Notes under the pieces: generated by a model
What the model saw: the letters and a program-made list of their open reading frames with translations, nothing else
Databases searched by the model: none
What the model was told of the DNA's origin: nothing
In this document: one piece after another, positions 7,658 to 58,227 of the stretch
How the letters are laid out: every line of letters begins with the position of its first letter
How positions within the stretch are numbered: position 1 is the stretch's first letter
NCBI GenBank assembly: GCA_945875865.1
Contig: CAMCMF010000003.1
Span: 8,418 to 72,417, forward strand
Length of the DNA: 64,000 nucleotides
Origin: Rhizobium sp. Q54
GTDB lineage: Bacteria > Pseudomonadota > Alphaproteobacteria > Rickettsiales > UBA1997
Direction: 5' to 3'
Translations under genes and position numbers: made by a program

Positions 7658-7699
7658 AAGAAAAAATTGGTTGATTATTCCTAAGATAGATAAATTAAA

Positions 7700-7785
7700 G
7701 ATGGACCCCGTCGGGCAAAGGGGTGACAAACTAGAGGTAATTTGCACCCCATGAGTTGTCACCCCGTCGCATGACGGGGTCCATC
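7700..7785. repeat. palindromic hairpin-doublet repeat, family B (GATGGACCCCGTC...GGGGTGAC / GTCACCCCGTCGCATGACGGGGTCCATC)
   Basis: 86-bp inverted-repeat element; related copies at 21980, 25031, 41034 and 57113. Confidence 0.85.
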
Positions 7786-7871
7786 TGAACTGTTGCTTGT
7801 GAAATTAGAAGTGCGCAATTTAAATAAAACATATTTCACAAACTTGAATCACTTCCGAACTTAATAAAATC

Positions 7872-14360: not shown

Positions 14361-14365
14361 AACTA

Positions 14366-14434
14366 CTGGATCCCCGCCTGCGCGGGGATGACAAACTCTC
14401 TCTCCGTGTCATCCCCGCGAAGGCGGGGATCCAG
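14366..14434. repeat. palindromic hairpin-doublet repeat, family A (unit GTCATCCCCGCGAAGGCGGGGATCCAG)
   Basis: CTGGATCCCCGCCTGCGCGGGGATGAC - spacer - GTCATCCCCGCGAAGGCGGGGATCCAG. Confidence 0.9.
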
Positions 14435-14464
14435 GAGGGATAAACTAAAAACTCAAATCACCAT

Positions 14465-14530: not shown

Positions 14531-14552
14531 TTTTAACCGCAGAATAAAACTA

Positions 14553-14621
14553 CTGGATCCCCGCCTACGCGGGGATAACAAACTCTCTCTCCGTGTCATC
14601 CCCGCGAAGGCGGGGATCCAG
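14553..14621. repeat. palindromic hairpin-doublet repeat, family A
   Basis: Second copy inside the 187-bp duplication, 2 substitutions relative to 14366-14434. Confidence 0.9.
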
Positions 14622-14651
14622 GAGGGATAAACTAAAAACTCAAATCACCAC

Positions 14652-14932
14652 ATGAGTTACTGGACATACATCTTAAGTTCAAAAAAAACGGCACGCTTTA
14701 TATTGGTGTTACCAACGATTTATCGCGCAGAATTTTTGAACATAAAAACAAATCTAGCGAAGGTTTTACGAAAAAATATGGAGTGGATAAGTTGGTTTAT
14801 GCAGAGGAATTTACGAATATTAATGAGGCAATTTTTCGAGAGAAATCTTTAAAAAAATGGAATCGCAAGTGGAAGTTGAGATTGATAGAAAGTATTAATC
14901 CAACTTGGAGCGATCTTTACGAAACTTTATAA
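14652..14932 (+). pseudogene. small GIY-YIG nuclease (COG2827/UPF0213-like), frame interrupted in an A8 run and intact after a -1 shift
   Basis: Frame 0 gives MSYWTYILSSKK. The -1 frame from 14687 gives NGTLYIGVTNDLSRRIFEHKNKSSEGFTKKYGVDKLVYAEEF...EAIFREKSLKKWNRKWKLRLIE...*. Joined, this is a canonical GIY...YIG...R...E...N domain of about 93 aa. Confidence 0.75.
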
Positions 14933-14935
14933 ATC

Positions 14936-15001
14936 CTGGATCCCCGCCTACGTGGGGAAGGTGCCGAGAGGCTTGTCATCCCCGCGAAGGCGGGGATCCA
15001 G
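14936..15001. repeat. palindromic hairpin-doublet repeat, family A
   Basis: CTGGATCCCCGCCTACGTGGGGAAG...GTCATCCCCGCGAAGGCGGGGATCCAG, 3 nt after the GIY-YIG stop. Confidence 0.85.
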
Positions 15002-15025
15002 TAAGTTAAAACTTAAACAAAAATT

Positions 15026-16603
15026 ATGACCATTTCACAAAAATCTTACCTCGAATCGAAAGCTTGGCCGTTTGAAGAAGCGCGCAGAATTTTGGAAAAA
15101 GTTGGCGGAAAGACTCCAGCGAAAGGTTATGTTTTATTTGAAACCGGCTATGGCCCGTCTGGCTTGCCGCATATTGGAACTTTTGGTGAAGTGGTGCGAA
15201 CTTCTTTTGTGCGTCATGCTTTTTCGATGATTGCGCCCGAAATTCCGACGAAAATGTTTTGTGTTTCGGATGATATTGACGGACTTCGCAAAGTGCCGGA
15301 AAATTTACCGAATCAGGAAATGATCCGCGCGAATTTGGGTCGTCCACTCACTTCAGTTCCAGATCCTTATCAAACTCACGCATCTTTTGGTGATCACATG
15401 AATGCGCGTCTGCGTGGCTTTCTCGATGGTTTTGGTTTTGAATATGATTTTATTAGCGCCACAGAAAAATATAAATCCGGCGCCTTTGATTCAACAATGC
15501 TGCGCGTTTTAGAAAAATATGAAGAGTTGATGGAGCTAATGCTACCAACACTTGGCGGTGAGCGTCAGGAAACCTATTCACCTTTTATGCCGATTGATTC
15601 TGAGTCAGGAATCGTAATTGATAAAGGCGTGAAAGGTGTGAATAAGCAGCGTGGAACCGTGATCTATCTTGATCCAAATGGCGTTGAAAAAGAAGTTCCT
15701 GTAACTGGTGGCAATTGCAAATTGCAGTGGAAAATTGATTTCGGCGCGCGCTGGTATTCGCTCGATGTCGATTACGAAATTTATGGAAAAGATCACCAAC
15801 CCAATGAAAGAATTTATCGCCGCGTCTGCGAGATCTTGGGCGGCAAGCCTCCAGTGAATTTCACTTACGAAATGTTTTTATCCGACAATGGTGAAAAAAT
15901 TTCCAAATCGAAAGGAAATGGCATTTCAGTTGAGGATTGGTTGAAATATGCACCGGCGGAATCGATGGCGCTTTTCATGTATCAAAAACCAAAAACGGCG
16001 AAGCGTCTTTATTTCGACGTAATTCCGAAAGCGATGGATGAATATTTAACTTTTGCACAAAGTTTTGTCGGACAAGAAGAGGCTGCGAAGCTAGATAATC
16101 CGGCCTTCCACATTCATGCCGGAAAAATTCCGTCGATAAATTTTAATGTCAGCTATTCGCTTTTGTTGAATTTGGCTTCAGTCTGCAATCCAGAAAATGA
16201 TGCAGTTTTGTGGGGATTTATTTCGAAATATCAGCAAGGTTTGAGCGCCGAAACTTCACCGCTTTTGGCAAAAATGGTTCATTGCTCAATTGCTTATTAC
16301 AACGATTTCATCAAGAAAAATAAAAAATTCAGAACTGCTTTGGAAGCAGAAAAATCAGCGCTTCGTGAACTTTGTTTAATGTTAGAAAATTTTCCAAAAG
16401 AGCAAGCGCATGACGGCGCTTTATTACAAAATCAAGTTTTCCAAATCGGAAAAAATCACGGTTACGAAAGTAAAATGCGCGATTGGTTTTTAGCGCTTTA
16501 CCAAATTTTGCTCGGCCAAGATCAAGGCCCAAGAATGGGATCTTTTATCGCGCTATTCGGGATTGAGAATTTTGTAAAATTGGTGGAAGAGAAAATCAAA
16601 TAA
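15026..16603 (+). CDS. lysK: lysyl-tRNA synthetase, class I
   Basis: Class I signatures PHIGTFGEV (HIGH-like) and KISKSKGN (KMSKS); about 525 aa, as in class I LysRS. Confidence 0.9.
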
Positions 16604-17381
16604 TACTCTTCACTTCAGAAATTAAATTCAAAAAAACATCAGTTTCGTAATTATCATGCTTGCCTTGCATAATTGAGGTGATGCGTTCCAAGCCCATGCC
16701 GGTGTCGATGCAGGGTTTTGGAAGTGGAATCATTTTTCCATCCTTATGTTTTTCAAATTGCATAAAAACCAGATTCCAAATCTCAATAAAACGATCGCCA
16801 TTTTGATCTTTTGATCCCGGAACGTCGCCGAAAATTTTATCGCCATGATCGTAGAAAATTTCAGAGCAGGGGCCGCATGGACCAACTTCGCCCATCGACC
16901 AAAAATTATCGTCGGTGGAAATTTTTATAATTTTTTCATCGGAAAGTCCGGCGATTTTTTTCCATAAATTTTTTGCATCTTCGTCAGTGTGATAAACGGT
17001 CACTAAAAGTTTTTCTGCTGATACGCCAAGTTCTTTGGTCAAAAAATTCCACGCGTAAAAAATCGCTTCTTCTTTAAAATAATCGCCGAAAGAAAAATTT
17101 CCCAACATCTCAAAAAAAGTGTGATGACGTGCGGTGTAGCCGACATTGTCGAGATCATTATGCTTGCCGCCGGCGCGTACGCATTTTTGTGAAGTTGCAG
17201 CCCGTTTAAATTTTGGAACTTCAATGCCAGTGAAATAATTTTTGAACTGATTCATGCCGGCATTGGTGAACATCAATGTCGGATCATTATGCGGAATTAG
17301 TGGTGAAGATGGAATAATCTCGTGGCCATTTTTGGCGAAATAATCGAGAAATTTTGTGCGGATTTCGTTGGTTGAAAGCAT
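16596..17381 (-). CDS. alaS: alanyl-tRNA synthetase, N-terminal fragment (class II catalytic core, motifs 1-3)
   Basis: [20 protein letters not shown]...[10 protein letters not shown]...[19 protein letters not shown]...[15 protein letters not shown]...; ends ...[10 protein letters not shown]; the stop overlaps the convergent lysK by 8 nt; start taken at ATG 17381. Confidence 0.85.
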
Positions 17382-17407
17382 GGGGGCAATTAGCAATTAA
17401 GAGTTAG

Positions 17408-17465
17408 CAAGTAACAATTAGCAGTTTGTGGCAATTGTTAATTGCTACCTGCTAATTGTTACTTG
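17408..17465. promoter_or_regulatory. 17-bp-stem inverted repeat between rnpB and the alaS N-fragment
   Basis: CAAGTAACAATTAGCAG - 24 nt - CTGCTAATTGTTACTTG; the loop holds a second palindrome (GCAATTGTTAATTGC); no T-run follows on the minus strand. Confidence 0.4.
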
Positions 17466-17936
17466 AAATGTAAGACAAGAATAAGCCGGATCCTGTATCG
17501 CTTGCGCGGTGACGATCATTCATCTGGGATTAACATCGCTGTTAACCTCAAGCAACCTACCCGAATGACGATGCGGGAGAACATCTGATTCTCGAAGAAC
17601 CTAGCCATTCCTATTTGGTCTTGCTCTCGATAGGGTTTTTCAGGATGCATGTTACCATACAAACTCGTGAGCTCTTACCTCGCGTTTTCATCCTTACTGA
17701 TTACGCACCCCCATCGCCGCGCTAACGCGTCGACTCGGTCCCCCTAAAAGGGGGATCATGGGGCGCATAATCTAGCGGTATATTCTCTGTGACACTTTCC
17801 CTTGGAAGCCATATATATTCTGGCTCCGCCGCCAGCCGTTAGCTGGTATCGTTCTCCCGTAGAGTCCGGACTTTCCTCTAATTTTCAAACTGCTTGCGCA
17901 ATCAAAATCAGCGATCATCTACTTGCCTTACAAGAT
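17466..17936 (-). ncRNA. rnpB: RNase P RNA, bacterial type A
   Basis: The reverse complement contains GAGGAAAGTCCGGACTC, CCAGCTAACGGCTGG and AGATGAATGATCGTC...ACAGGATCCGGCTTAT (P4/J-region consensus). P1 pairs GTAAGGCAAG (17922-17931) with CTTGTCTTAC (17470-17479). Ends are good to about +/-15 nt. Confidence 0.9.
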
Positions 17937-17979
17937 CGCAAAAATAAAGTGCGCCGCCTTTCAAAGCAATGTAAGAATC

Positions 17980-18954
17980 ATGAAAACCGTTTTCTCAGGA
18001 ATACAACCAACCGGTAATCTACATTTAGGAAATTATCTGGGCGCGATTCGCAACTGGATTGATTTGCAAAATACTCACCGATGTATTTTCGGCGTAATGA
18101 ATCTGCACGCCATCACCTTGCCGCAAGATCCCAAAGAGTTGGAACAAAATGTTTTAGAAGCTGCTGCGACCTATATTGCTTGCGGACTTGATCCGAAAAA
18201 ATCGACGATTTTTGTGCAAAGTGAAGTGGCTGAGCATGTGGAATTGGCGTGGGTTCTTGGGACTTTGACCCCACTAGGTTGGCTTGATCGCATGACGCAA
18301 TTTAAAGATAAAAAAAACAGCAACGAGAATCTAGGACTTTACGCTTATCCAGCTTTAATGGCTGCCGATATTTTGCTTTATAAAAGTGATTTAGTACCAG
18401 TTGGTGAAGATCAAAAACAACATCTCGAATTAACTCGCGATATCGCCGGCTCTTTCAATCGTCGCTTTGATTGCGAATATTTTAAACTTCCGGAACCGAT
18501 GATTTTAAAAGAAGTAAAGCGCATTATGTCGCTACAAGATGGCACAAAAAAAATGAGCAAATCGGGGGAATCCGAAATTTCGCGCATCAACTTAATCGAT
18601 TCGCCAGAGCAAATTGTGAAAAAAATTAAGAAGGCAAAAACTGATTCTCTTGCTACATTAACTTACGACGAAGCTCGTCCAGAAATTTATAATCTATTGA
18701 ATATTTTTTCCGCCATTACCGAAAAAAATCCGCAAGAAATTGCCAAGGAATATGAAAATTCCGGTTACGGAAAATTTAAAAATGATTTGGCGGATGCTTT
18801 AGTTGCAAAGCTGGCGCCGATTCAAACAGAATTAACTCGTTTAAAAACAGATCAATTTTACTTAAAAAGAATTTTGAGTGAAGGGCGAGAAGCGGCGAGT
18901 GAAATTGCTAAAAAAACTAAGAAAGAAGTTTTTGAAATTGTTGGCTTAAGTTAA
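17980..18954 (+). CDS. trpS: tryptophanyl-tRNA synthetase
   Basis: FSGIQPTGNLHLGNY (HIGH region) and KMSKS; start set at ATG 17980 because the listed extension overlaps rnpB. Confidence 0.9.
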   Translation: MKTVFSGIQPTGNLHLGNYLGAIRNWIDLQNTHRCIFGVMNLHAITLPQDPKELEQNVLEAAATYIACGLDPKKSTIFVQSEVAEHVELAWVLGTLTPLGWLDRMTQFKDKKNSNENLGLYAYPALMAADILLYKSDLVPVGEDQKQHLELTRDIAGSFNRRFDCEYFKLPEPMILKEVKRIMSLQDGTKKMSKSGESEISRINLIDSPEQIVKKIKKAKTDSLATLTYDEARPEIYNLLNIFSAITEKNPQEIAKEYENSGYGKFKNDLADALVAKLAPIQTELTRLKTDQFYLKRILSEGREAASEIAKKTKKEVFEIVGLS

Positions 18955-21155: not shown

Positions 21156-21196
21156 GAAAAATTTTTATGAAGAAAAAAGTGATTGTATAAAATGTA

Positions 21197-21336
21197 TATA
21201 CCAAATCAGCTTCAAGAAGCCGATTTAGTATATTGATTTTGTTTTTACGCAGGATGACCTGCGCCCCACATTGTGGGGAACCCCGTATACCGACTCTTTA
21301 TTTTTGAGTTCGGTAACTTGAATTGGTTTCGGTATA
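21197..21336 (+). mobile_element. MITE, family F (about 140 bp)
   Basis: Imperfect terminal inverted repeats TATACCAAATCAGCTTCAAGAAGCCGA / TCGGTAACTTGAATTGGTTTCGGTATA; internal hairpins GCAGGATGACCTGC and CCCCACATTGTGGGG; 4 more full copies in the window. Confidence 0.85.
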
Positions 21337-21375
21337 AGGCTTACAAAAATCTTATAAACTAACTCATTTTTCAAC

Positions 21376-21979: not shown

Positions 21980-22068
21980 GATGGACCCCCGTTCATGCGA
22001 CGGGGTGACAAGTGTGGGAATAGCGCAAACCCTCTCTATTTGTCACCCCGTCGCATGACGGGGTCCAG
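21980..22068. repeat. palindromic hairpin-doublet repeat, family B
   Basis: GATGGACCCCCGTTCATGCGACGGGGTGAC...GTCACCCCGTCGCATGACGGGGTCCAG. Confidence 0.85.
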
Positions 22069-36994: not shown

Positions 36995-37848
36995 AACGAG
37001 CATTTTCTCTCATCGAACTTTCAGTCGTAATTCTAATCATCGGAATTTTGGTGGCAGGCGTGACGCAATCAAGTCGCTTGGTCAATCAGATGAGGCTTAA
37101 TTCAGCAAGAGCTCAAACACAAAGCTCGCCCGTTGCGGGTATTAAGGATTTGGTTTTATGGCTAGAGGCAACTAGCGAAAATAGTTTTATTACCACTGAA
37201 GCAGGAGGTGGTTCGCCACTCACGGCTTGGTATGATACTAATCCGCAAGCTGTAGTAAAAAATCATGCCACTCGCGTAACCAGTAACGCCAATGTCACTT
37301 ACGAAGATAATGCCATAAATTCTTTGCCGGGAGTTTACTTTAATGGAACTGCTGCGACTACAAGTAATCTGGCTGGAAATGTTATCACTTCACACAACAA
37401 TGCTTTTAGTTTTTTTCTAGTTTCGCGATTGACTGAAACCACTACGGGAAATTGGCGTGGCGCATTCTTCAATGGATCTTCTGGTGGTTGGGGCTATCAA
37501 AAAGACGGATTATCTCCATCGAAAAGAGATTTGGTTTTCCCCGGCGTAGTTGATTCTTACAGCACTACTAACATCACAACCAATGCAGAGTTAATTTCAG
37601 CAACTCATACCGGAACCACTACAGCTCTTTATTTAAATGGCGCTAATGAAGGCCCCTCTACAACCTCTGCCAGTATGAATTCTCCGGTATCGCAATATAT
37701 TGTTGGAAATCATGGAACAACCGGAGCAACACCTCCATGGATGGGCTATCTTTGTGAAATTATAGTTTTTGACCGCGCCTTAAAAACAGAAGAGCGCCGA
37801 GCAGTTGAAGCATATCTCGGCAAAAAATGGGGAATCAGAGTTATTTAA
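36991..37848 (+). CDS. prepilin-type N-terminal domain protein with a LamG/ConA-like C-terminal domain (paralogue 2)
   Basis: MKRA/FSLIELSVVILIIGILVAGVTQSSRLV...; C-terminus ...GYLCEIIVFDRALKTEERRAVEAYLGKKWGI; ATGA overlap with the nhaA stop. Confidence 0.6.
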   Translation: MKRAFSLIELSVVILIIGILVAGVTQSSRLVNQMRLNSARAQTQSSPVAGIKDLVLWLEATSENSFITTEAGGGSPLTAWYDTNPQAVVKNHATRVTSNANVTYEDNAINSLPGVYFNGTAATTSNLAGNVITSHNNAFSFFLVSRLTETTTGNWRGAFFNGSSGGWGYQKDGLSPSKRDLVFPGVVDSYSTTNITTNAELISATHTGTTTALYLNGANEGPSTTSASMNSPVSQYIVGNHGTTGATPPWMGYLCEIIVFDRALKTEERRAVEAYLGKKWGIRVI

Positions 37849-39190
37849 TTTTTGCAATAATTTCATCCGCAATTTTATTTATTTCTTCCAGCGATTTTCC
37901 TTCCACCATCACGCGAATTAAATTTTCAGTTCCTGATTTGCGAACTAAAATGCGTCCTTCATTTCCTAAAGTTTTTTCCTTTTCTGAGATAAATTCCTGT
38001 AGCGATTTTTCTTCAAGCGGATTTTTTTTGCCGTCAAATTTTATATTTTTTAAAACTTGCGGAAAGGCTTCGTAAAGATTCAAAACTTCGCTCACTGGTT
38101 TTTTCGATTCACAAACAACTGATAAAACTTGTAAAGCTGCTACAAGCCCGTCACCAGTGGTTGAATAGTTTGAAAGCACGATGTGACCAGATTGCTCGCC
38201 ACCAAAATTACAGCCGCTATTTTTCATTTCTTCGAGCACGTAACGATCGCCAACTTTAGTGCGAATTGTCGAAACGCCGATATAGCTCAAATAATTTTCT
38301 AAAGCGAGATTTGACATTTGCGTGATGACAACGGTGTCCTTTTTCAAATTGCCTTCGTTGTGAAGTTTTTCGGCAATTAGTGCGATGATTTTATCGCCGG
38401 AAACCGCGTGACCTTGTTCATTAACAATCAAAACACGATCTGCATCACCATCTAGTGCGATGCCAATATCAGCTTTGGTTTCGAGAACTTTATAGCAGAG
38501 AGTTTCTGGGTGAGTTGAACCACATTTTTCGTTGATGTTGAAGCCATTTGGCTCGGTTCCAATCTCAATTACTTCGGCGCCTAATTCGCGAAAAATTGTT
38601 GGTGCCATGGCGTAAGAAGAGCCGTTGGCGCAATCGACAACAATTTTCAAACCGCTGAGAGTTTTATCTTTTGGGAAGGAGTTTTTTACGAATTCAATGT
38701 AGCGACCGCGAGCATCTTCCAATCTTTTTACGCGACCAAGATTTTCTGATGTAGCCAAGTGAGCAGTGATGTCGCCATCAATCATTTTTTCGATTTCCAA
38801 TTCAACTTCATCAGAAAGTTTGTGACCTTCATTATCAAAAATTTTAATGCCATTATCGTAGTAAGGATTGTGTGAAGCGGAAATCATGATGCCGATATCA
38901 GCGCGAAGAGAGCGCGTCAGCATTGAAACTGCAGGAGTTGGAACGGGACCAACTAAAAACACATCCATGCCTACAGCCGCAAAACCAGCGGTGAGGGCGG
39001 GTTCAATTACGTAACCAGAAAGTCGAGTATCTTTTCCGATAACGACACGATGGCGATGATTGCCATTAGTGAATTGCGCCCCAAATTTTACGCCAACTGC
39101 CATGCCGATTTTAAGCGCGATTTCCGCAGTCATGGGAAATTTATTTACTGTGCCGCGAATACCGTCAGTGCCGAAATATTTTTTGTTCAT
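37841..39190 (-). CDS. glmM: phosphoglucosamine mutase
   Basis: YFGTDGIRG..., active site SASHNPYYDNGIK, LDGDADR. Confidence 0.9.
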   Translation of the reverse strand: MNKKYFGTDGIRGTVNKFPMTAEIALKIGMAVGVKFGAQFTNGNHRHRVVIGKDTRLSGYVIEPALTAGFAAVGMDVFLVGPVPTPAVSMLTRSLRADIGIMISASHNPYYDNGIKIFDNEGHKLSDEVELEIEKMIDGDITAHLATSENLGRVKRLEDARGRYIEFVKNSFPKDKTLSGLKIVVDCANGSSYAMAPTIFRELGAEVIEIGTEPNGFNINEKCGSTHPETLCYKVLETKADIGIALDGDADRVLIVNEQGHAVSGDKIIALIAEKLHNEGNLKKDTVVITQMSNLALENYLSYIGVSTIRTKVGDRYVLEEMKNSGCNFGGEQSGHIVLSNYSTTGDGLVAALQVLSVVCESKKPVSEVLNLYEAFPQVLKNIKFDGKKNPLEEKSLQEFISEKEKTLGNEGRILVRKSGTENLIRVMVEGKSLEEINKIADEIIAKIK

Positions 39191-39311: not shown

Positions 39312-41018
39312 TTACTTTATTAAATTCTTCAAAACTTCAATAGCCTGCGGAATCCCTTCTTTATTAACTCCGCCACCCATAGCGAAATCTTTTTTCCCGC
39401 CACCACCTTTGCCACCGATTTCAAGAATCATCGGCATAAGAAGTTTTGTGGCGTCAAATTTATCAAGCGATTTTGCAGCAACTGCCACGCAAATTGACAC
39501 CTTGTCATCTTTAGTTCCAAAGAGCGCAACCACGTCTGATTTTTTTATTAATTCATTGGCAATATCACGCAAAGCGCCGGCATCAACATCTTCAAAATGA
39601 TGAGCTAAAACTGCGCAGCCATTAATATCGCACGCTTGCAGCTTGTCTAAATTAGCCAGCAGAGTTTGTTTTTTCAGACGCTCAATTTCCTTGTCTTGCT
39701 TCTTCAAAGTTTCTTCGAGAAGTAATTTTTTTGATTCTTCCTCTTTTTTTACTAAATATTCTTTTACGGCAACCGAGCTTACAGCTGTGATTCTTCTGAT
39801 TCCAGAAGCGATGCTTTTTTCAGAAATGATTTTAAAAATTTCAATATCTGCAGTATTTTTAACGTGAGTTCCGCCGCAAAGTTCAACCGAATTTCCCATC
39901 TTTACGACACGAACTTCTGAATCATATTTTTCACCAAACAAAGCTTCTGCCCCAGTTTCACGAGCTTGATTTAAATCCATCAAATTAGTGCTCACGACTC
40001 CACTATTTTTGATTTGCGCATTCACCAAATCTTCAACTTTTTTGATTTCATCCGCAGTCATGGCGCGGTTAAAATTGAAGTCGAAAGTGAAGCCATCGAA
40101 ATCAACATTCGAACCTTTTTGTGAAATAGAATTTCCCAAAACTTCTTTCAAAGCTTTATGCATTAAATGCGTTGCAGAGTGATTGACAGCACGGCTTTGT
40201 CGGGTTTGAGGATTTACTTCTGCAGTAACTTCATCACCAACTTTCAAATCGCATTTTTGATCGCTAAAAAAATGTGCAAACAATCCACCAGCGAATTTTT
40301 TTGTTTCATAAATTTCAACATCAGCAATTTTTCCATCATCACCTTTTTGTCCGCCGGAAGTAGCATAAAACGGTGTTTGATCGAGAATTAAAAAATTTGA
40401 ATAAACCGCTAAAACTTTCGCTTCTGCACTCAAATTTTCGTAACCCAAAAATTTCGTTTCGCCAAATTTTTCTTTGAGATCAAAAAATATTTTATCATCA
40501 GAAACTTCGCCAGATCCTTTCCAATTGGCCTTCGCGCGTTCACGTTGCAATTCCATCTCGCGATTAAATTCTTCAACATCAACTTCGAGATTTTTTTCTT
40601 TTAGAATATCTTGCGTGAGATCAAGCGGAAAACCAAAAGTGTCATAAAGCTTGAAAGCAATAGCGCCGGAAAATTTTTCACCTTTTATTTTGGCCATTTC
40701 TTCTTCCAAAATTTTCAAACCCTTTTCCAAAGTTTCGCGGAATTTTTCTTCTTCGTTTTTTAATGTTTCGATAATCACGTCGCGCGCTCTTCCTAATTCC
40801 GGATAAGCGGCGCCCATTTCTCTAATCAAGCCATCAACTAATTTATACATTGAAGCGTCAGAAGCTCCTAACTTGTGAAGCTGGCGCATCGCTCGGCGCA
40901 TGATGCGGCGTAAAACATAACCTCTGCCTTCATTGCTTGGCAAAACACCATCGGCAACTAAAAAACAAGAAGAGCGCAAGTGATCGGCGATGATTTTTAA
41001 TTCTGGTTTTACTGACAT
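39312..41018 (-). CDS. alaS: alanyl-tRNA synthetase, C-terminal fragment (tRNA-recognition, editing and C-Ala/DHHA1 regions)
   Basis: MSVKPELKIIADHLRSSCFLVADGVLPSNEGRGYVLRRIMRRA..., editing HSATHLMH...CGGTHV, C-terminal GGGGKKDFAMGGG; start taken at ATG 41018 because the listed extension reads through repeat B. Confidence 0.85.
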   Translation of the reverse strand: MSVKPELKIIADHLRSSCFLVADGVLPSNEGRGYVLRRIMRRAMRQLHKLGASDASMYKLVDGLIREMGAAYPELGRARDVIIETLKNEEEKFRETLEKGLKILEEEMAKIKGEKFSGAIAFKLYDTFGFPLDLTQDILKEKNLEVDVEEFNREMELQRERAKANWKGSGEVSDDKIFFDLKEKFGETKFLGYENLSAEAKVLAVYSNFLILDQTPFYATSGGQKGDDGKIADVEIYETKKFAGGLFAHFFSDQKCDLKVGDEVTAEVNPQTRQSRAVNHSATHLMHKALKEVLGNSISQKGSNVDFDGFTFDFNFNRAMTADEIKKVEDLVNAQIKNSGVVSTNLMDLNQARETGAEALFGEKYDSEVRVVKMGNSVELCGGTHVKNTADIEIFKIISEKSIASGIRRITAVSSVAVKEYLVKKEEESKKLLLEETLKKQDKEIERLKKQTLLANLDKLQACDINGCAVLAHHFEDVDAGALRDIANELIKKSDVVALFGTKDDKVSICVAVAAKSLDKFDATKLLMPMILEIGGKGGGGKKDFAMGGGVNKEGIPQAIEVLKNLIK

Positions 41019-41033
41019 AGATTTTTTTAAAAA

Positions 41034-41120
41034 GATGGACCCCGTCATGAAGAAGGGGTGACAAATTGAGAAGGTAATTCGTGCCACGCAAGTTGTCACC
41101 CCGTCGCATGACGGGGCCAT
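41034..41120. repeat. palindromic hairpin-doublet repeat, family B
   Basis: GATGGACCCCGTCATGAAGAAGGGGTGAC...GTCACCCCGTCGCATGACGGGGCCAT, between the rnj stop and the alaS C-fragment start. Confidence 0.85.
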
Positions 41121-41127
41121 AAACTAA

Positions 41128-42873
41128 CTAACTTACTAAATTAATTGCTATTTCCATCGCTGGTCTTTTTCCCATCAAATCTTCAAAAATTTTCAGCATT
41201 TTTGAACGCAGAGCTTTTTCAACTTCACCAAGGATTTTTGTTTCGTTCAAATTCTTTTTCTTATTTTTCTTTTGCAAAAAGCGCATGCCAAATCCGCTGT
41301 TCAAATCAAGTTCTTTGGCCTTGTGTTTGAGGAACATTTGAATTTCTTTTTTGATCATGTCTTCTGCTTCGCGATCATTTTTTAGATCATAAGAACCGAT
41401 GCAAAATATGCGGATTTTTGAAAGTAGATTCAGGGAATCATTAACTGCGAAAGAGATGCTGACGATGCCGCTAAGTTGTAATTTTTTACGTTCGCGAATC
41501 ACTTCACCTTTAAAATCAAGTAGCTGTTTTCCATCAACTCCAAAATAGCCGACTTTTACAGAACCAACTTGTTGCGAATTCATCGGATTTTCTGCGTCGA
41601 TTTTCACCGCCATGCCATTTTCAATTTGGATGGTGCGTTGCACGCCACAGCTGGCTGCGAGCTCACAGTGAGTTTTGGTGTGAATGAATTCGCCGTGAAC
41701 TGGAATGGCGATTTTTGGTTGAGCTAACGCATACATTTCGCGAAGTTCATCTTGCGAAGGATGGCCAGAAACGTGAACGAAGTGATCTTTTTCGGTCATC
41801 ACATCAATTTGTTTTTTAGCTAATTCGTCAAAAAGTTCGAAGATTTTTTTCTCATTTCCGGGAATAATTTTTGAGGAGAAAATTACTAAATCACCTTTGG
41901 TAAAACGAATTGTTGGATGAATATCGGTAGCGATTTTGCGAGTTGCAGCATTGGGCTCGCCTTGGCAGCCAGTTGAGATTACAAGGATTTCGCTTTTTTT
42001 ATAAAACTTCATTTCGCGATCAGAAATGAACTCAAAATTTTCGGTGAAATATCCACTTTTTTTACCAACTTCGTGAAGGCGATGAAGTGAAAAACCGGCG
42101 AGAACAATTTTACGTCCGACCTCTTTTGCGATGCGGCAAATGGTGTGAACCCGCGCGATGTTTGAAGCGAAAGTTGTAACGCCGACTAAACCTTGTCGAC
42201 CAACAATTAGTTTTTTTAGTGATTCGTGAAGCTCGCCTTCTGATCTGGAATGGCCTTCGGATAGCGCGTTTGTTGAATCGCAGATTACTGCGGTAATTTC
42301 GCCTAGGTCGCCGTAAGCTTTAATTTTTTCTTTTTCCGAAACATTTCCGATGATTGGATCTGGATCGAATTTCCAATCTCCAGTGTGTAAAACATTTCCT
42401 TTTTCCGTGCGAATCATCAAAGCCTGCATTTCAGGAACCGAGTGGGTGAGGCCGATAAATTCGATTTTGAAAGGTTTTAAATCGAGCTCTTTTGAACCGT
42501 CGATGACGTGGATTGGAACTTTTTTATTGAGTTTATATTCCTCCAATTTGGTGCGCAAAAAATTGGCGCCAAAGTTGGTGGCATAAACCGGCGCGCCTAA
42601 TTCTTCCCACAAATATTGAATCGCACCCATGTGATCTTCGTGGATGTGAGTGAGGATAATTCCGACTAAATTGTGGCGATGGGCTTTGATGAAGGAAATA
42701 TCGGCTGTCATCATGTCGACGCCTGGAATGTCGTAAGCAAATCCGACACCGCAATCAACCATCAGCCATTTGCCGTTGAGTTGGTAGAGATTGACATTCA
42801 TCCCGATTTCATTGGCGCCGCCAAGGGGGAGAAAAAGGAGATCGTCGAAATGTTTTTTTAAGTTTAGTTCCAT
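41128..42873 (-). CDS. rnj: ribonuclease J
   Basis: Metallo-beta-lactamase motif THIHEDHMG, beta-CASP region, about 580 aa; start at ATG 42873 (MELNLKK). Confidence 0.85.
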   Translation of the reverse strand: MELNLKKHFDDLLFLPLGGANEIGMNVNLYQLNGKWLMVDCGVGFAYDIPGVDMMTADISFIKAHRHNLVGIILTHIHEDHMGAIQYLWEELGAPVYATNFGANFLRTKLEEYKLNKKVPIHVIDGSKELDLKPFKIEFIGLTHSVPEMQALMIRTEKGNVLHTGDWKFDPDPIIGNVSEKEKIKAYGDLGEITAVICDSTNALSEGHSRSEGELHESLKKLIVGRQGLVGVTTFASNIARVHTICRIAKEVGRKIVLAGFSLHRLHEVGKKSGYFTENFEFISDREMKFYKKSEILVISTGCQGEPNAATRKIATDIHPTIRFTKGDLVIFSSKIIPGNEKKIFELFDELAKKQIDVMTEKDHFVHVSGHPSQDELREMYALAQPKIAIPVHGEFIHTKTHCELAASCGVQRTIQIENGMAVKIDAENPMNSQQVGSVKVGYFGVDGKQLLDFKGEVIRERKKLQLSGIVSISFAVNDSLNLLSKIRIFCIGSYDLKNDREAEDMIKKEIQMFLKHKAKELDLNSGFGMRFLQKKNKKKNLNETKILGEVEKALRSKMLKIFEDLMGKRPAMEIAINLVS

Positions 42874-42889
42874 CTGTTTTTGTTTTTTA

Positions 42890-43013
42890 ACCCTCTTTGA
42901 AAAAGAGGGTGGCATCGCGTAAGCGATGACGGGTGATTTTGGTAAAACGAATTCTTAATTTAAGAAATCCTCCGACCTCGCTAACGCTCGGCCACCTCCT
43001 TTGTTAAAGGAGG
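42890..43013. repeat. composite palindromic repeat, family D
   Basis: CCCTCTTTGAAAAAGAGGGTGGC...AAATCCTCCGACCTCGCTAACGCTCGGCCACCTCCTTTGTTAAAGGAGG; overlaps the last codons of coaX. Confidence 0.75.
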
Positions 43014-44993: not shown

Positions 44994-45099
44994 AGAAATT
45001 ACGAATTAGGAGTTGGCAATTGAAGCGTTGACTTTTTTGGAGGGCCCGCGTTTTATGTGCGCTCTCCCACTTGTCAAACAAATACTCATTTTAAAAAAC

Positions 45100-45396
45100 A
45101 TGTCAGGTTCAATCGGCACCGATTCGCTATTTCTAGGTCTAACGCGTCCCCCAATGTTGCTTGGTGTGAGTTATACTTTTGCCGCGTTAAATGGCATCGT
45201 TTCGCTACTTGCTTTCGTGATCACTAGTAAATTTTTCTACCTTTTGATTTTGCTCCCCGGCTTACATTTAATGGGCTGGTTCATCTGTTTGAAAGAGCCG
45301 CGAGCGATTGAACTTTTTATCGCGCGGATGTCGAAATGTAATGTTTGTCGGAATAGATATTATCACAGCGGCACTAACTCGTACGACGTATACTAA
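45100..45396 (+). CDS. virB3: type IV secretion system protein VirB3-like
   Basis: 98 aa; ...DSLFLGLTRPPMLLGVSY... (the VirB3/TrbD LTRP motif), two TM helices, C-terminus ...RNRYYHSGTNSYDVY; start at ATG 45100. Confidence 0.6.
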   Translation: MSGSIGTDSLFLGLTRPPMLLGVSYTFAALNGIVSLLAFVITSKFFYLLILLPGLHLMGWFICLKEPRAIELFIARMSKCNVCRNRYYHSGTNSYDVY

Positions 45397-45501: not shown

Positions 45502-45516
45502 TTGGTTTTTTAGTTT

Positions 45517-45581
45517 GTCATCCCCGCGAAAGCGGGGATCCAGACTTTTAGAAACTGGATCCCCGCTTTCGCGGGGATGAC
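45517..45581. repeat. palindromic hairpin-doublet repeat, family A (outward arrangement)
   Basis: GTCATCCCCGCGAAAGCGGGGATCCAG - 17 nt - CTGGATCCCCGCTTTCGCGGGGATGAC. Confidence 0.9.
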
Positions 45582-45598
45582 AAACTGAAAATAATTTT

Positions 45599-48570: not shown

Positions 48571-48584
48571 ATTTGTCGCTCTCT

Positions 48585-48653
48585 GTCATCCCCGCGAAAG
48601 CAGGGATCCAGAATGTTTTTAAAGAGCTGGATCCCTGCTTTCGCGGGGATGAC
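48585..48653. repeat. palindromic hairpin-doublet repeat, family A (outward arrangement)
   Basis: GTCATCCCCGCGAAAGCAGGGATCCAG - 21 nt - CTGGATCCCTGCTTTCGCGGGGATGAC (compensatory G>A / C>T changes keep the pairing). Confidence 0.9.
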
Positions 48654-48672
48654 AGAGAATAAATATTAATTT

Positions 48673-52243: not shown

Positions 52244-52384
52244 TATACCAAATCAGCTTCAAAAAGCCGATTAGGTATATTGATTTTGTTTTTACGCAGG
52301 ATGACCTGCGCCCCACAGTCGTGGGGAACCCCATATACCGACTCTTTATTTTTTAGTTCGGTTTCTTGAATTGGTTTCGGTATA
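52244..52384 (+). mobile_element. MITE, family F
   Basis: Full copy; shares its terminal TA (52383-52384) with the next copy. Confidence 0.85.
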
Positions 52385-52523
52385 TACCAAATCAGCTTCA
52401 AGAAGCCGATTTAGTATATTGATTTTGTTTTTACGCAGGATGGCCTGCGCCCCACAGTCGTGGGGAACCCCCTATACCGACTCTTTATTTTTTAGTTCGG
52501 TATCTTGAATTGGTTTCGGTATA
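52383..52523 (+). mobile_element. MITE, family F
   Basis: Full copy, head-to-tail with the previous one. Confidence 0.85.
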
Positions 52524-52529
52524 AAACCC

Positions 52530-55122: not shown

Positions 55123-55263
55123 TATACCGAAACCAATTCAAGAAACCGAACTCAAAAATAAAGAGTCGGTATATGGGGTTCCCCACGACCGTGGGGCGCA
55201 GGCCATCCTGCGTAAAAATAAAATCAATATACCCATTCGGCTTCTTGAAGCTGATTTGGTATA
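55123..55263 (-). mobile_element. MITE, family F (inverted relative to the copies at 52244 and 52383)
   Basis: Full copy; shares its terminal TA (55262-55263) with the next copy. Confidence 0.85.
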
Positions 55264-55401
55264 TAGCGAAACCAATTCAAGAAACCGAACTCAAAAATAA
55301 AGAGTCGGTATATGGGGTTCCCCACAATGTGGGGCGCAGGCCATCCTGCGTAAAAATAAAATCAATATACTAAATCGGCTTCTTGAAGCTGATTTGGTAT
55401 A
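55262..55401 (-). mobile_element. MITE, family F
   Basis: Full copy, followed by a 19-nt partial terminal repeat (TATACCGAATCTGAATCAA). Confidence 0.85.
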
Positions 55402-55419
55402 TACCGAATCTGAATCAAA

Positions 55420-57003: not shown

Positions 57004-57112
57004 TTTTTTTGTAGGTGTCCCCAATAACTCTTTAACAAACCAAACTCACCTTGCTCTCAAAACATTCCATCAAAATTAGTAATTCTTAATTTTGTCTAAA
57101 TTTTTTTAGTTT

Positions 57113-57215
57113 GTCACCCCGTCTTTATGATGGGGCCTATCTTGCCGCGACTGTTGAGATCAATTTAATTTCCGAATATTTGACGAAATGGACCCCGTCA
57201 TAAAGACGGGGTGAC
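57113..57215. repeat. palindromic hairpin-doublet repeat, family B (outward arrangement, long spacer)
   Basis: GTCACCCCGTCTTTATGATGGGGCC...TGGACCCCGTCATAAAGACGGGGTGAC. Confidence 0.8.
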
Positions 57216-57318
57216 AATAATGGGAAATGAGCTAGAACAAGTATGGTTAATACTTAATTTCTTAAGCGTTGGGTTGGGTGTAATGTGTTTCTCGGGGATG
57301 ACACCGAGGGGGGCTAAA

Positions 57319-58122: not shown

Positions 58123-58144
58123 ATCGGGTTGTTCAGTTTTTTAT

Positions 58145-58214
58145 GTCATCCCCGCGAAAGCGGGGATCCAGTTTGTTTCAAGATTCTCTGGATCCCCGCT
58201 TTCGCGGGGATGAC
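58145..58214. repeat. palindromic hairpin-doublet repeat, family A (outward arrangement)
   Basis: GTCATCCCCGCGAAAGCGGGGATCCAG - 16 nt - CTGGATCCCCGCTTTCGCGGGGATGAC; a half-unit remnant lies at about 57294-57312. Confidence 0.9.
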
Positions 58215-58227
58215 ACCGAGGGTTTTG

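Follow-up and report, generated by a model that had tools for sequence, protein, structure and literature searches.

Can a bacterial alanyl-tRNA synthetase (AlaRS) be made of two chains that are encoded far apart in the genome? The question is raised by a stretch of 64,000 nucleotides, hereafter the window, from Rhizobium sp. Q54 (GenBank assembly GCA_945875865.1, contig CAMCMF010000003.1, positions 8,418 to 72,417), a genome placed in Rickettsiales; UBA1997 in the GTDB lineage. In a first-pass annotation made from the letters alone, two minus-strand open reading frames (ORFs) free of internal stops had been noticed that together reconstruct one AlaRS, and two explanations had been offered for them, namely a functional two-piece enzyme assembled in trans, or a gene killed by rearrangement. 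Both ORFs are confirmed by our analysis, and of the two explanations the former is favoured and the latter disfavoured by the conservation, the selection, the motifs and the synteny described below. As judged from the sequence, the two genes very probably encode a bacterial AlaRS of two obligate subunits (alpha and beta) held together non-covalently. They are as follows.

16596..17381, minus strand: alaS-N (alpha), 261 amino acids (aa), the class II catalytic core of AlaRS with motifs 1-3
39312..41018, minus strand: alaS-C (beta), 568 aa, the tRNA-recognition domain, the editing domain and C-Ala/DHHA1

Gene structure and functional motifs of the two halves

The contiguous, non-overlapping coverage of AlaRS that the first-pass annotation had proposed to confirm is just what the domain models give. 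In Pfam, alaS-N matches positions 1-257 of the 552 positions of tRNA-synt_2c (E=2e-122), and alaS-C takes up the same model at positions 263-550 and continues with tRNA_SAD (E=2e-18) and DHHA1 (E=8e-13). Similarly, on the 847 positions of the NCBIfam model TIGR00344 (alaS), alaS-N covers 1-247 and alaS-C covers 268-847; the scores are 398 and 506 bits for this bacterial model, to be compared with 88 and 317 bits for the archaeal model TIGR03683. The AlaRS catalytic fragments in the PDB match alaS-N with E about 1e-115, and its identity with the catalytic core of ordinary alphaproteobacterial AlaRS is 67-73%. When the contiguous AlaRS of the nearest relatives are aligned to the window by tblastn, residues 1-259 fall on 17381-16605 and residues from 273 to the end fall on 40997-39369, and no further AlaRS-like sequence is detected by this search in the 64 kb. 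The module content is that of a bacterial-type AlaRS, yet it is divided between two polypeptides, whose ORFs lie 21.9 kb apart and have each its own start and stop.

The alignment with E. coli AlaRS (PDB 3HXU) puts the end of alaS-N at about residue 270 and the start of alaS-C at about residue 274. As seen by comparison with seven contiguous alphaproteobacterial AlaRS, the break is located in a variable loop, which leads from the helix that follows motif 3 to the helix that opens the recognition domain: alaS-N stops 5 residues into the loop, the Met of alaS-C stands 7 residues before IIADH, and nothing is added. About 5-8 loop residues are absent in this comparison, and about 3-8 over all alignments, so the earlier impression that almost nothing is missing between the pieces holds. 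Neither an intein nor a docking sequence was found at the termini of the two proteins. Though the mechanical ORFs (16596-17396 from a TTG and 39312-41120 from an ATG) extend a little further upstream, the N-termini of the homologues indicate that the true starts are most likely ATG 17381 for alaS-N and ATG 41018 for alaS-C, as noted in the first pass; the frame stays open for 34 codons upstream of M41018, and this extension, which belongs to a palindromic repeat copy, lacks conservation.

Moreover, the functional motifs are complete. The class II motifs 1-3 are present in alaS-N, with DTGMGLER as motif 3. In alaS-C, the tRNA-recognition domain keeps both the Asn in PSNEGRGY and the Asp in KLYDTFG, which are the equivalents of Asn359 and Asp450 in the alignment with A. 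fulgidus AlaRS (3WQY), i.e. the two residues of AlaRS that read the G3:U70 base pair (PMC11392972). The zinc motifs of the editing domain, HSATH (HxxxH) and CGGTH (CxxxH), are intact, and the glycine motif of DHHA1 is present.

Conservation of the split across a lineage

The sharing of the split by relatives, proposed earlier as a check, is extensive: its termini are identical across more than 200 database clusters. Homologues of the N-part were searched among 5.8 billion protein clusters, and the figures given here come from the best 120 matches. For alaS-N these clusters are 76-91% identical and all about 260 aa long; they begin M-L-[ST]-T-N-[EQ]-I-R and end 12-16 residues past DNYETD, with a few carrying tails up to about 30 residues longer. 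For alaS-C the best 120 clusters are 59-76% identical and 564-714 aa long, and where the N-terminus is intact the sequence almost always begins M-x(1-4)-[KP]-x-E-[LFY]-K-I-I-A-D-H. Of the C-part clusters that have an untruncated start, roughly 205 in number, almost all share one junction, and a search of 50%-identity representatives adds further C-parts starting at the junction, down to 43% identity. When the search is seeded with the most basal C-part (P0252), the best 120 matches are all C-part-only; 87 of them are new clusters, every one of which starts at the same junction (87/87), and the signature of the catalytic core is found in none of them (0/87). No frameshifts or stops are present in the halves of the more than 200 clusters. 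In a neighbour-joining tree, the sequences of the split type join the window protein in a single clade, apart from all contiguous enzymes. A neighbour-joining tree of AlaRS places the window with sequences from Holosporales and Rickettsiales, which is weak evidence for its taxonomic position.

The split can also be seen directly in DNA. From a scan of species-representative genomes that was limited to 600 pattern matches, 80 alphaproteobacterial loci were listed: two of them (L001 and L002) carry the split, and the other 78 of 78 have a contiguous alaS with an identity of 73% or below. Six of the metagenome loci listed show it as well, one of them on a marine scaffold from Tara Oceans with an N-part of no more than 72% identity, besides further contigs bearing homologues; contigs of 0.88, 1.23 and 1.52 Mb each hold one or the other half. 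The split is a trait of the whole lineage and not a peculiarity of the window genome, and this lineage is a large alphaproteobacterial one, mostly from freshwater and groundwater and also marine. Its members bear inconsistent labels in NCBI, such as Alphaproteobacteria, Rickettsiales, Pelagibacterales, Proteobacteria bacterium and 'Rhizobium sp.'; one of them is 'Alphaproteobacteria bacterium RIFCSPLOWO2_01_FULL_40_26'. The published account of Mitibacteraceae offers no connection to them.

The ratio of nonsynonymous to synonymous substitution rates (dN/dS) was calculated pairwise by the Nei-Gojobori method, for the N-part with the window and five relatives and for the C-part with the window and two relatives. 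It is 0.03-0.12 for alaS-N and 0.13 for alaS-C, with dS among the compared pairs ranging from 0.85 to more than 3. Purifying selection acts strongly on both halves, and such constraint over so deep a divergence argues against redundancy.

A proposed two-subunit enzyme and its alternatives

We propose the following scheme for the enzyme. The alpha chain is the bare catalytic core, which would bind ATP and alanine and form alanyl-adenylate, and the beta chain would take over all tRNA handling: its helical recognition domain carries both G3:U70 readers, its editing domain would clear Ser- or Gly-tRNA(Ala), and its C-Ala would serve for dimerisation and for binding of the tRNA elbow. The cut falls where two domains meet, within a loop on the surface, so the two chains could re-establish the usual interface non-covalently, probably in an alpha2-beta2 form held by C-Ala, and would act together as the AlaRS of the cell. 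Since alpha is devoid of any tRNA-recognition element, it is expected to be inactive in tRNA charging when alone. For the lineage as a whole, we are fairly confident that this deep-branching and uncultured alphaproteobacterial group runs on an obligate two-subunit AlaRS assembled in trans, with alpha usually co-transcribed with a stable RNA.

Several points weigh against this proposal. To our knowledge, trans complementation of a cut at about residue 270 has been shown by no one. The two halves stand on one contig only in the window, and in the relatives their arrangement is inferred from collinear tiling; a paired look-up of P0002 and P0131 led to two different records. A second, intact alaS that came horizontally from a distant donor would have escaped our searches. 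Finally, the E. coli N-terminal AlaRS fragment of 368 residues cannot charge tRNA (PMC11392972).

It is improbable, if conceivable, that the halves are functional without forming a joint AlaRS, with beta as an AlaX-like editing or tRNA-binding factor, alpha adenylating alanine elsewhere, and tRNA(Ala) charged by a separate and possibly foreign intact AlaRS from another part of the genome. In fact free-standing AlaX editing proteins exist, the beta chain gives a sub-threshold match to the AlaXM model (NF040865, 104 bits against a cut-off of 300), and the genome beyond the window could hold another alaS. However, beta keeps the complete tRNA-recognition domain and both G3:U70 readers, which AlaX proteins lack, and alpha is conserved at 76-91% across the clade like the core of a housekeeping synthetase. 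The lack of any intact alaS of at least 76% identity among the 120 best matches of every search speaks on the same side, as does the single alaS-N locus in each of the two split-bearing metagenome-assembled genomes (MAGs) among the 80 loci listed.

Very unlikely is the second explanation of the first-pass annotation, in which the ORFs are what a rearrangement has left of a now decaying gene and an intact alaS stands elsewhere, although genes cut in this way usually do decay and the rest of the genome lies outside the window. The relaxed selection named at that time as the sign of such a decay is not what we found: the dN/dS of 0.03-0.13 at saturating dS, together with the intact frames and with termini that stay identical though the C-parts diverge to 43% identity, means that these are not pseudogene fragments, and all catalytic and editing motifs are intact. 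The explanation is effectively refuted by the data of selection and conservation.

Split inteins are used to rejoin DnaE in cyanobacteria, and both alaS genes are on the same strand, so that one may also think of a split intein, of RNA trans-splicing or of a programmed ribosomal bypass that would rejoin the halves into a single-chain AlaRS; we give this very little credit. There is no intein or Hint domain by Pfam, the termini consist of AlaRS homology to within 5-7 residues, the homologues begin with Met at the junction, the codons upstream of M41018 are unconserved repeat sequence, no group I or group II intron is found in the window by Rfam, and the C-part precedes the N-part in the permuted gene order. 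To the extent that sequence allows a judgement, inteins and RNA splicing are excluded as means of rejoining.

The exact 261-aa N-part, with rnpB upstream and the overlap with lysK, is found on contigs of three assemblies whose DNA is 99.8-100% identical, and one of these contigs, 54.5 kb long, should by its coordinates span the C-part too. It is hardly conceivable that an assembly or binning artefact hides a contiguous alaS in the real chromosome: MAG contigs can be chimeric and palindromic repeats do break assemblies here (contig L091 ends in a repeat cluster near 14552), but misassembly is excluded because independent assemblies repeat the locus, dozens of unrelated assemblies have the same termini, and all termini fall on genuine stop or start codons beside conserved genes, not on contig ends.

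Genomic neighbourhoods and the origin of the split

The surroundings of alaS-N contain the following features.

15026..16603, plus strand: lysK, class I lysyl-tRNA synthetase (Pfam tRNA-synt_1f, E=4e-123)
17408..17465, minus strand: long hairpin with a 17-bp perfect stem and an inner stem (inverted repeat I20)
17467..17930, minus strand: rnpB, RNase P RNA of class A (Rfam RF00010, 246 bits)

The first-pass statements on this neighbourhood are borne out, in that the 3' end of the convergent lysK overlaps the alaS-N stop by 8 nt and rnpB is located directly upstream of alaS-N on the same strand with a gap of 85 nt. The order nadA-trpS-rnpB-alaS-N is present in the window and in L001, L002, L081, L086 and L096, and the convergent lysK is beside alaS-N also in L001, L086, L087 and L096; it was not detected there in L002, L081 and L082. 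In L086, an ankyrin-repeat protein gene is inserted between alaS-N and lysK. In the window, 15026-18954 packs class I lysK, alaS-N, trpS and rnpB into 4 kb, and since the mechanical start of trpS (TTG 17923) overlaps the 5' end of rnpB, the real start is probably further downstream.

A stable-RNA gene stands directly upstream of alaS-N in most of the lineages examined, and mostly it is rnpB; in one sub-lineage, tRNA-Ile(GAT) takes its place 21-35 nt upstream of alaS-N, and on the marine scaffold alaS-N follows the rpsM-rpoA-rplQ operon. The spacers between the stable RNA and alaS-N are as follows.

17382-17466 in the window
7696-7716 in L001
7533-7580 in L086
9979-10001 in L082
2432-2468 in L097

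As these spacers to the alaS-N start can be as short as 19-46 nt, they suggest that alaS-N may be co-transcribed with the precursor of RNase P RNA or tRNA and then processed. The hairpin at 17408..17465, between the 3' end of rnpB and the start of alaS-N, has a folding energy of -29.1 kcal/mol (z = -6.0) and is followed by no U-tract; it may be a processing or a termination element.

The surroundings of alaS-C are different genes altogether.

37841..39190, minus strand: glmM, phosphoglucosamine mutase (Pfam PGM_PMM I-IV), downstream of alaS-C
41038..41118, minus strand: dispersed palindromic repeat, one copy of which takes up the spacer between rnj and alaS-C (-46.6 kcal/mol, z = -6.1)
41128..42915, minus strand: rnj, RNase J (Pfam RNase_J_b_CASP, Lactamase_B, RMMBL)

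The order coaX-rnj-alaS-C-glmM is conserved in the window and its relatives. In the window rnj immediately precedes alaS-C on its strand, and this adjacency recurs in L085, L088-L090, the P0188 contig, L095 and L176, with a gap of only 3 nt in L088; even the deep group of C-parts with 671-680 aa keeps rnj-(EamA)-alaS-C. Probably rnj and alaS-C form one operon, and the two halves would be expressed separately, alpha behind rnpB or a tRNA and beta behind rnj. Immediately ahead of the alaS-C start codon, the repeat copy at 41038-41118 gives way to a short U-run, and a dedicated leader or attenuator was considered for this place. It was rejected, as the hairpin is a copy of a dispersed repeat and the spacer is unconserved in L085 and L088. 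The same palindromic family, TTGTCACCCCGTC...GACGGGGTCCATCT, is found at 7699-7786, 21988-22063, 41038-41118 and 57111-57217.

The permuted order of the halves had been described correctly: on the same strand, alaS-C lies 21.9 kb upstream of alaS-N in the direction of transcription. The spacer of 22 kb is tiled collinearly by the genes that follow the C-part in L085 and L088 together with the genes that precede the N-part in L081 and L091, which makes it probable that the spacing is common to close relatives. Which site is the original one? In 63 of the 78 unsplit alphaproteobacterial loci (L004-L079), recA is located just upstream of alaS on the same strand, and the recA-alaS pair is present in the closest unsplit relative as well (L026, 59% overall identity). 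No split locus has recA beside either half, so the split went along with the loss of the ancestral recA-alaS arrangement. Among the fetched loci, no unsplit relative has lysK, trpS, rnj or glmM adjoining alaS. Neither half can be taken as the mark of the site before the split, since the neighbour in unsplit relatives is recA and not the neighbours in the window. We suppose that the split arose once, in the ancestor of this large, deeply diverged and uncultured alphaproteobacterial lineage, when a genome rearrangement took alaS out of the ancestral recA-alaS site, for example by two inversions, or by duplication and subsequent reciprocal loss.

Besides the two alaS loci, some other features of the window deserve mention. 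Intergenic palindromes resembling repetitive extragenic palindromic sequences or miniature inverted-repeat transposable elements (REP/MITE-like), with the core TGTCATCCCCGCGAAAGCGGGGATCCAG, are found at 14363-14437, 14550-14624, 14923-15014, 45507-45591, 48580-48658 and 58144-58215; three copies form a cluster just upstream of lysK, inside which the contig of one independent assembly ends. Another intergenic repeat of about 143 bp occurs singly near 21194-21337 and in tandem pairs at 52244-52524 and 55123-55404, with 92-96% identity; the pair at 55123-55404 is in opposite orientation. A Shine-Dalgarno-like motif within 20 nt of the start is present in only 3 of the 38 ATG-start genes of the window, from which the organism seems to initiate translation largely without Shine-Dalgarno pairing; the lack of the motif is accordingly nothing special to the alaS halves. 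In addition, L085 (5445-5741) and the P0188 contig each have a small, isolated virB3-like gene (Pfam VirB3), flanked by aspS and an aminotransferase gene, with no other type IV secretion genes nearby in either; the L085 copy aligns to about 45028-45396 (plus strand) of the window.

Significance and comparison with known systems

AlaRS has been described as the sole synthetase that keeps the four-domain single-chain prototype, with the exception of Nanoarchaeum equitans (PMC10036535, PMC8887476). Our full-text literature searches returned no report of a split bacterial AlaRS, the nanoarchaeotal case being the only one found, and the present one would be the first in bacteria as far as found. 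The alpha chain scores below the cut-off of the NCBI alaS model (398 against 457 bits), and at least one database copy of it is named 'hypothetical protein'; the low score may explain both this name and the fact that the split went unnoticed. There is also a practical side, because AlaRS (COG0013/PF01411) is used as a single-copy marker for phylogeny and completeness (PMC11740963): genomes of this lineage may be scored as duplicated or truncated for the marker, and sets filtered by length or domain may miss alpha.

If the proposed two-subunit enzyme is true, it means that in vivo the catalytic core need not be in one protein with the tRNA-recognition module in order to work with it. It would provide an independent cut, cleaner than that of Nanoarchaeum, on which nature itself puts the modular 'operational RNA code' view of synthetase evolution to the test, as well as a natural system for studying how G3:U70 recognition is coupled to catalysis and editing over a non-covalent interface. 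The junction would moreover be a naturally validated split site for the engineering of split synthetases.

The closest counterpart is the AlaRS of N. equitans and other Nanoarchaeota, which likewise comes from two chromosomally distant genes, the N-piece bearing the active site and the C-piece bearing editing and C-Ala. There, the alpha piece is the counterpart of E. coli 368N and retains the Asn reader, with all else supplied by beta; alone, alpha charges weakly and without G3:U70 specificity, and the full G3:U70-specific activity needs both pieces (PMC11392972, PMC10036535). The breakpoint differs, being at about E. coli residue 270/274 here, on a domain boundary, and at about 368 in N. equitans, inside the recognition domain (PMC11392972). 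As a consequence of the cut at about 270 rather than 368, both G3:U70 readers are on beta here, whereas in N. equitans the Asn is on alpha and the Asp position on beta. Furthermore, here the organism is a bacterium and the enzyme is of the bacterial type (TIGR00344), and the nanoarchaeal split concerns an archaeal-type enzyme. The split here has an origin of its own and is fixed in a large alphaproteobacterial lineage, in contrast to a group of archaeal symbionts with tiny genomes.

Other synthetases are naturally split too, such as the alpha/beta LeuRS of Aquifex aeolicus and the crenarchaeal ThrRS-cat/ThrRS-ed, in which catalysis is set apart from editing or tRNA handling; in the crenarchaeal ThrRS, each piece is a free-standing functional enzyme. 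These are other enzymes, of other classes and with other breakpoints, and unlike them the catalytic piece here is left without a tRNA-recognition element. As for AlaRS itself, AlaX/AlaXp and the viral mini-AlaRS are natural stand-alone pieces of its architecture (PMC10036535). AlaX consists of the editing domain only, with or without C-Ala, whereas alaS-C has about 300 residues of tRNA-synt_2c before its editing domain; mini-AlaRS holds the catalytic and recognition domains in one chain, and neither of the two parts the core from the recognition domain. With the canonical single-chain AlaRS (E. coli 3HXU, A. aeolicus 1RIQ), finally, the enzyme of the window shares all four modules and the motifs, and it differs from them in a chain that is interrupted after the catalytic core, in a permuted gene order and in the loss of the recA-alaS linkage.

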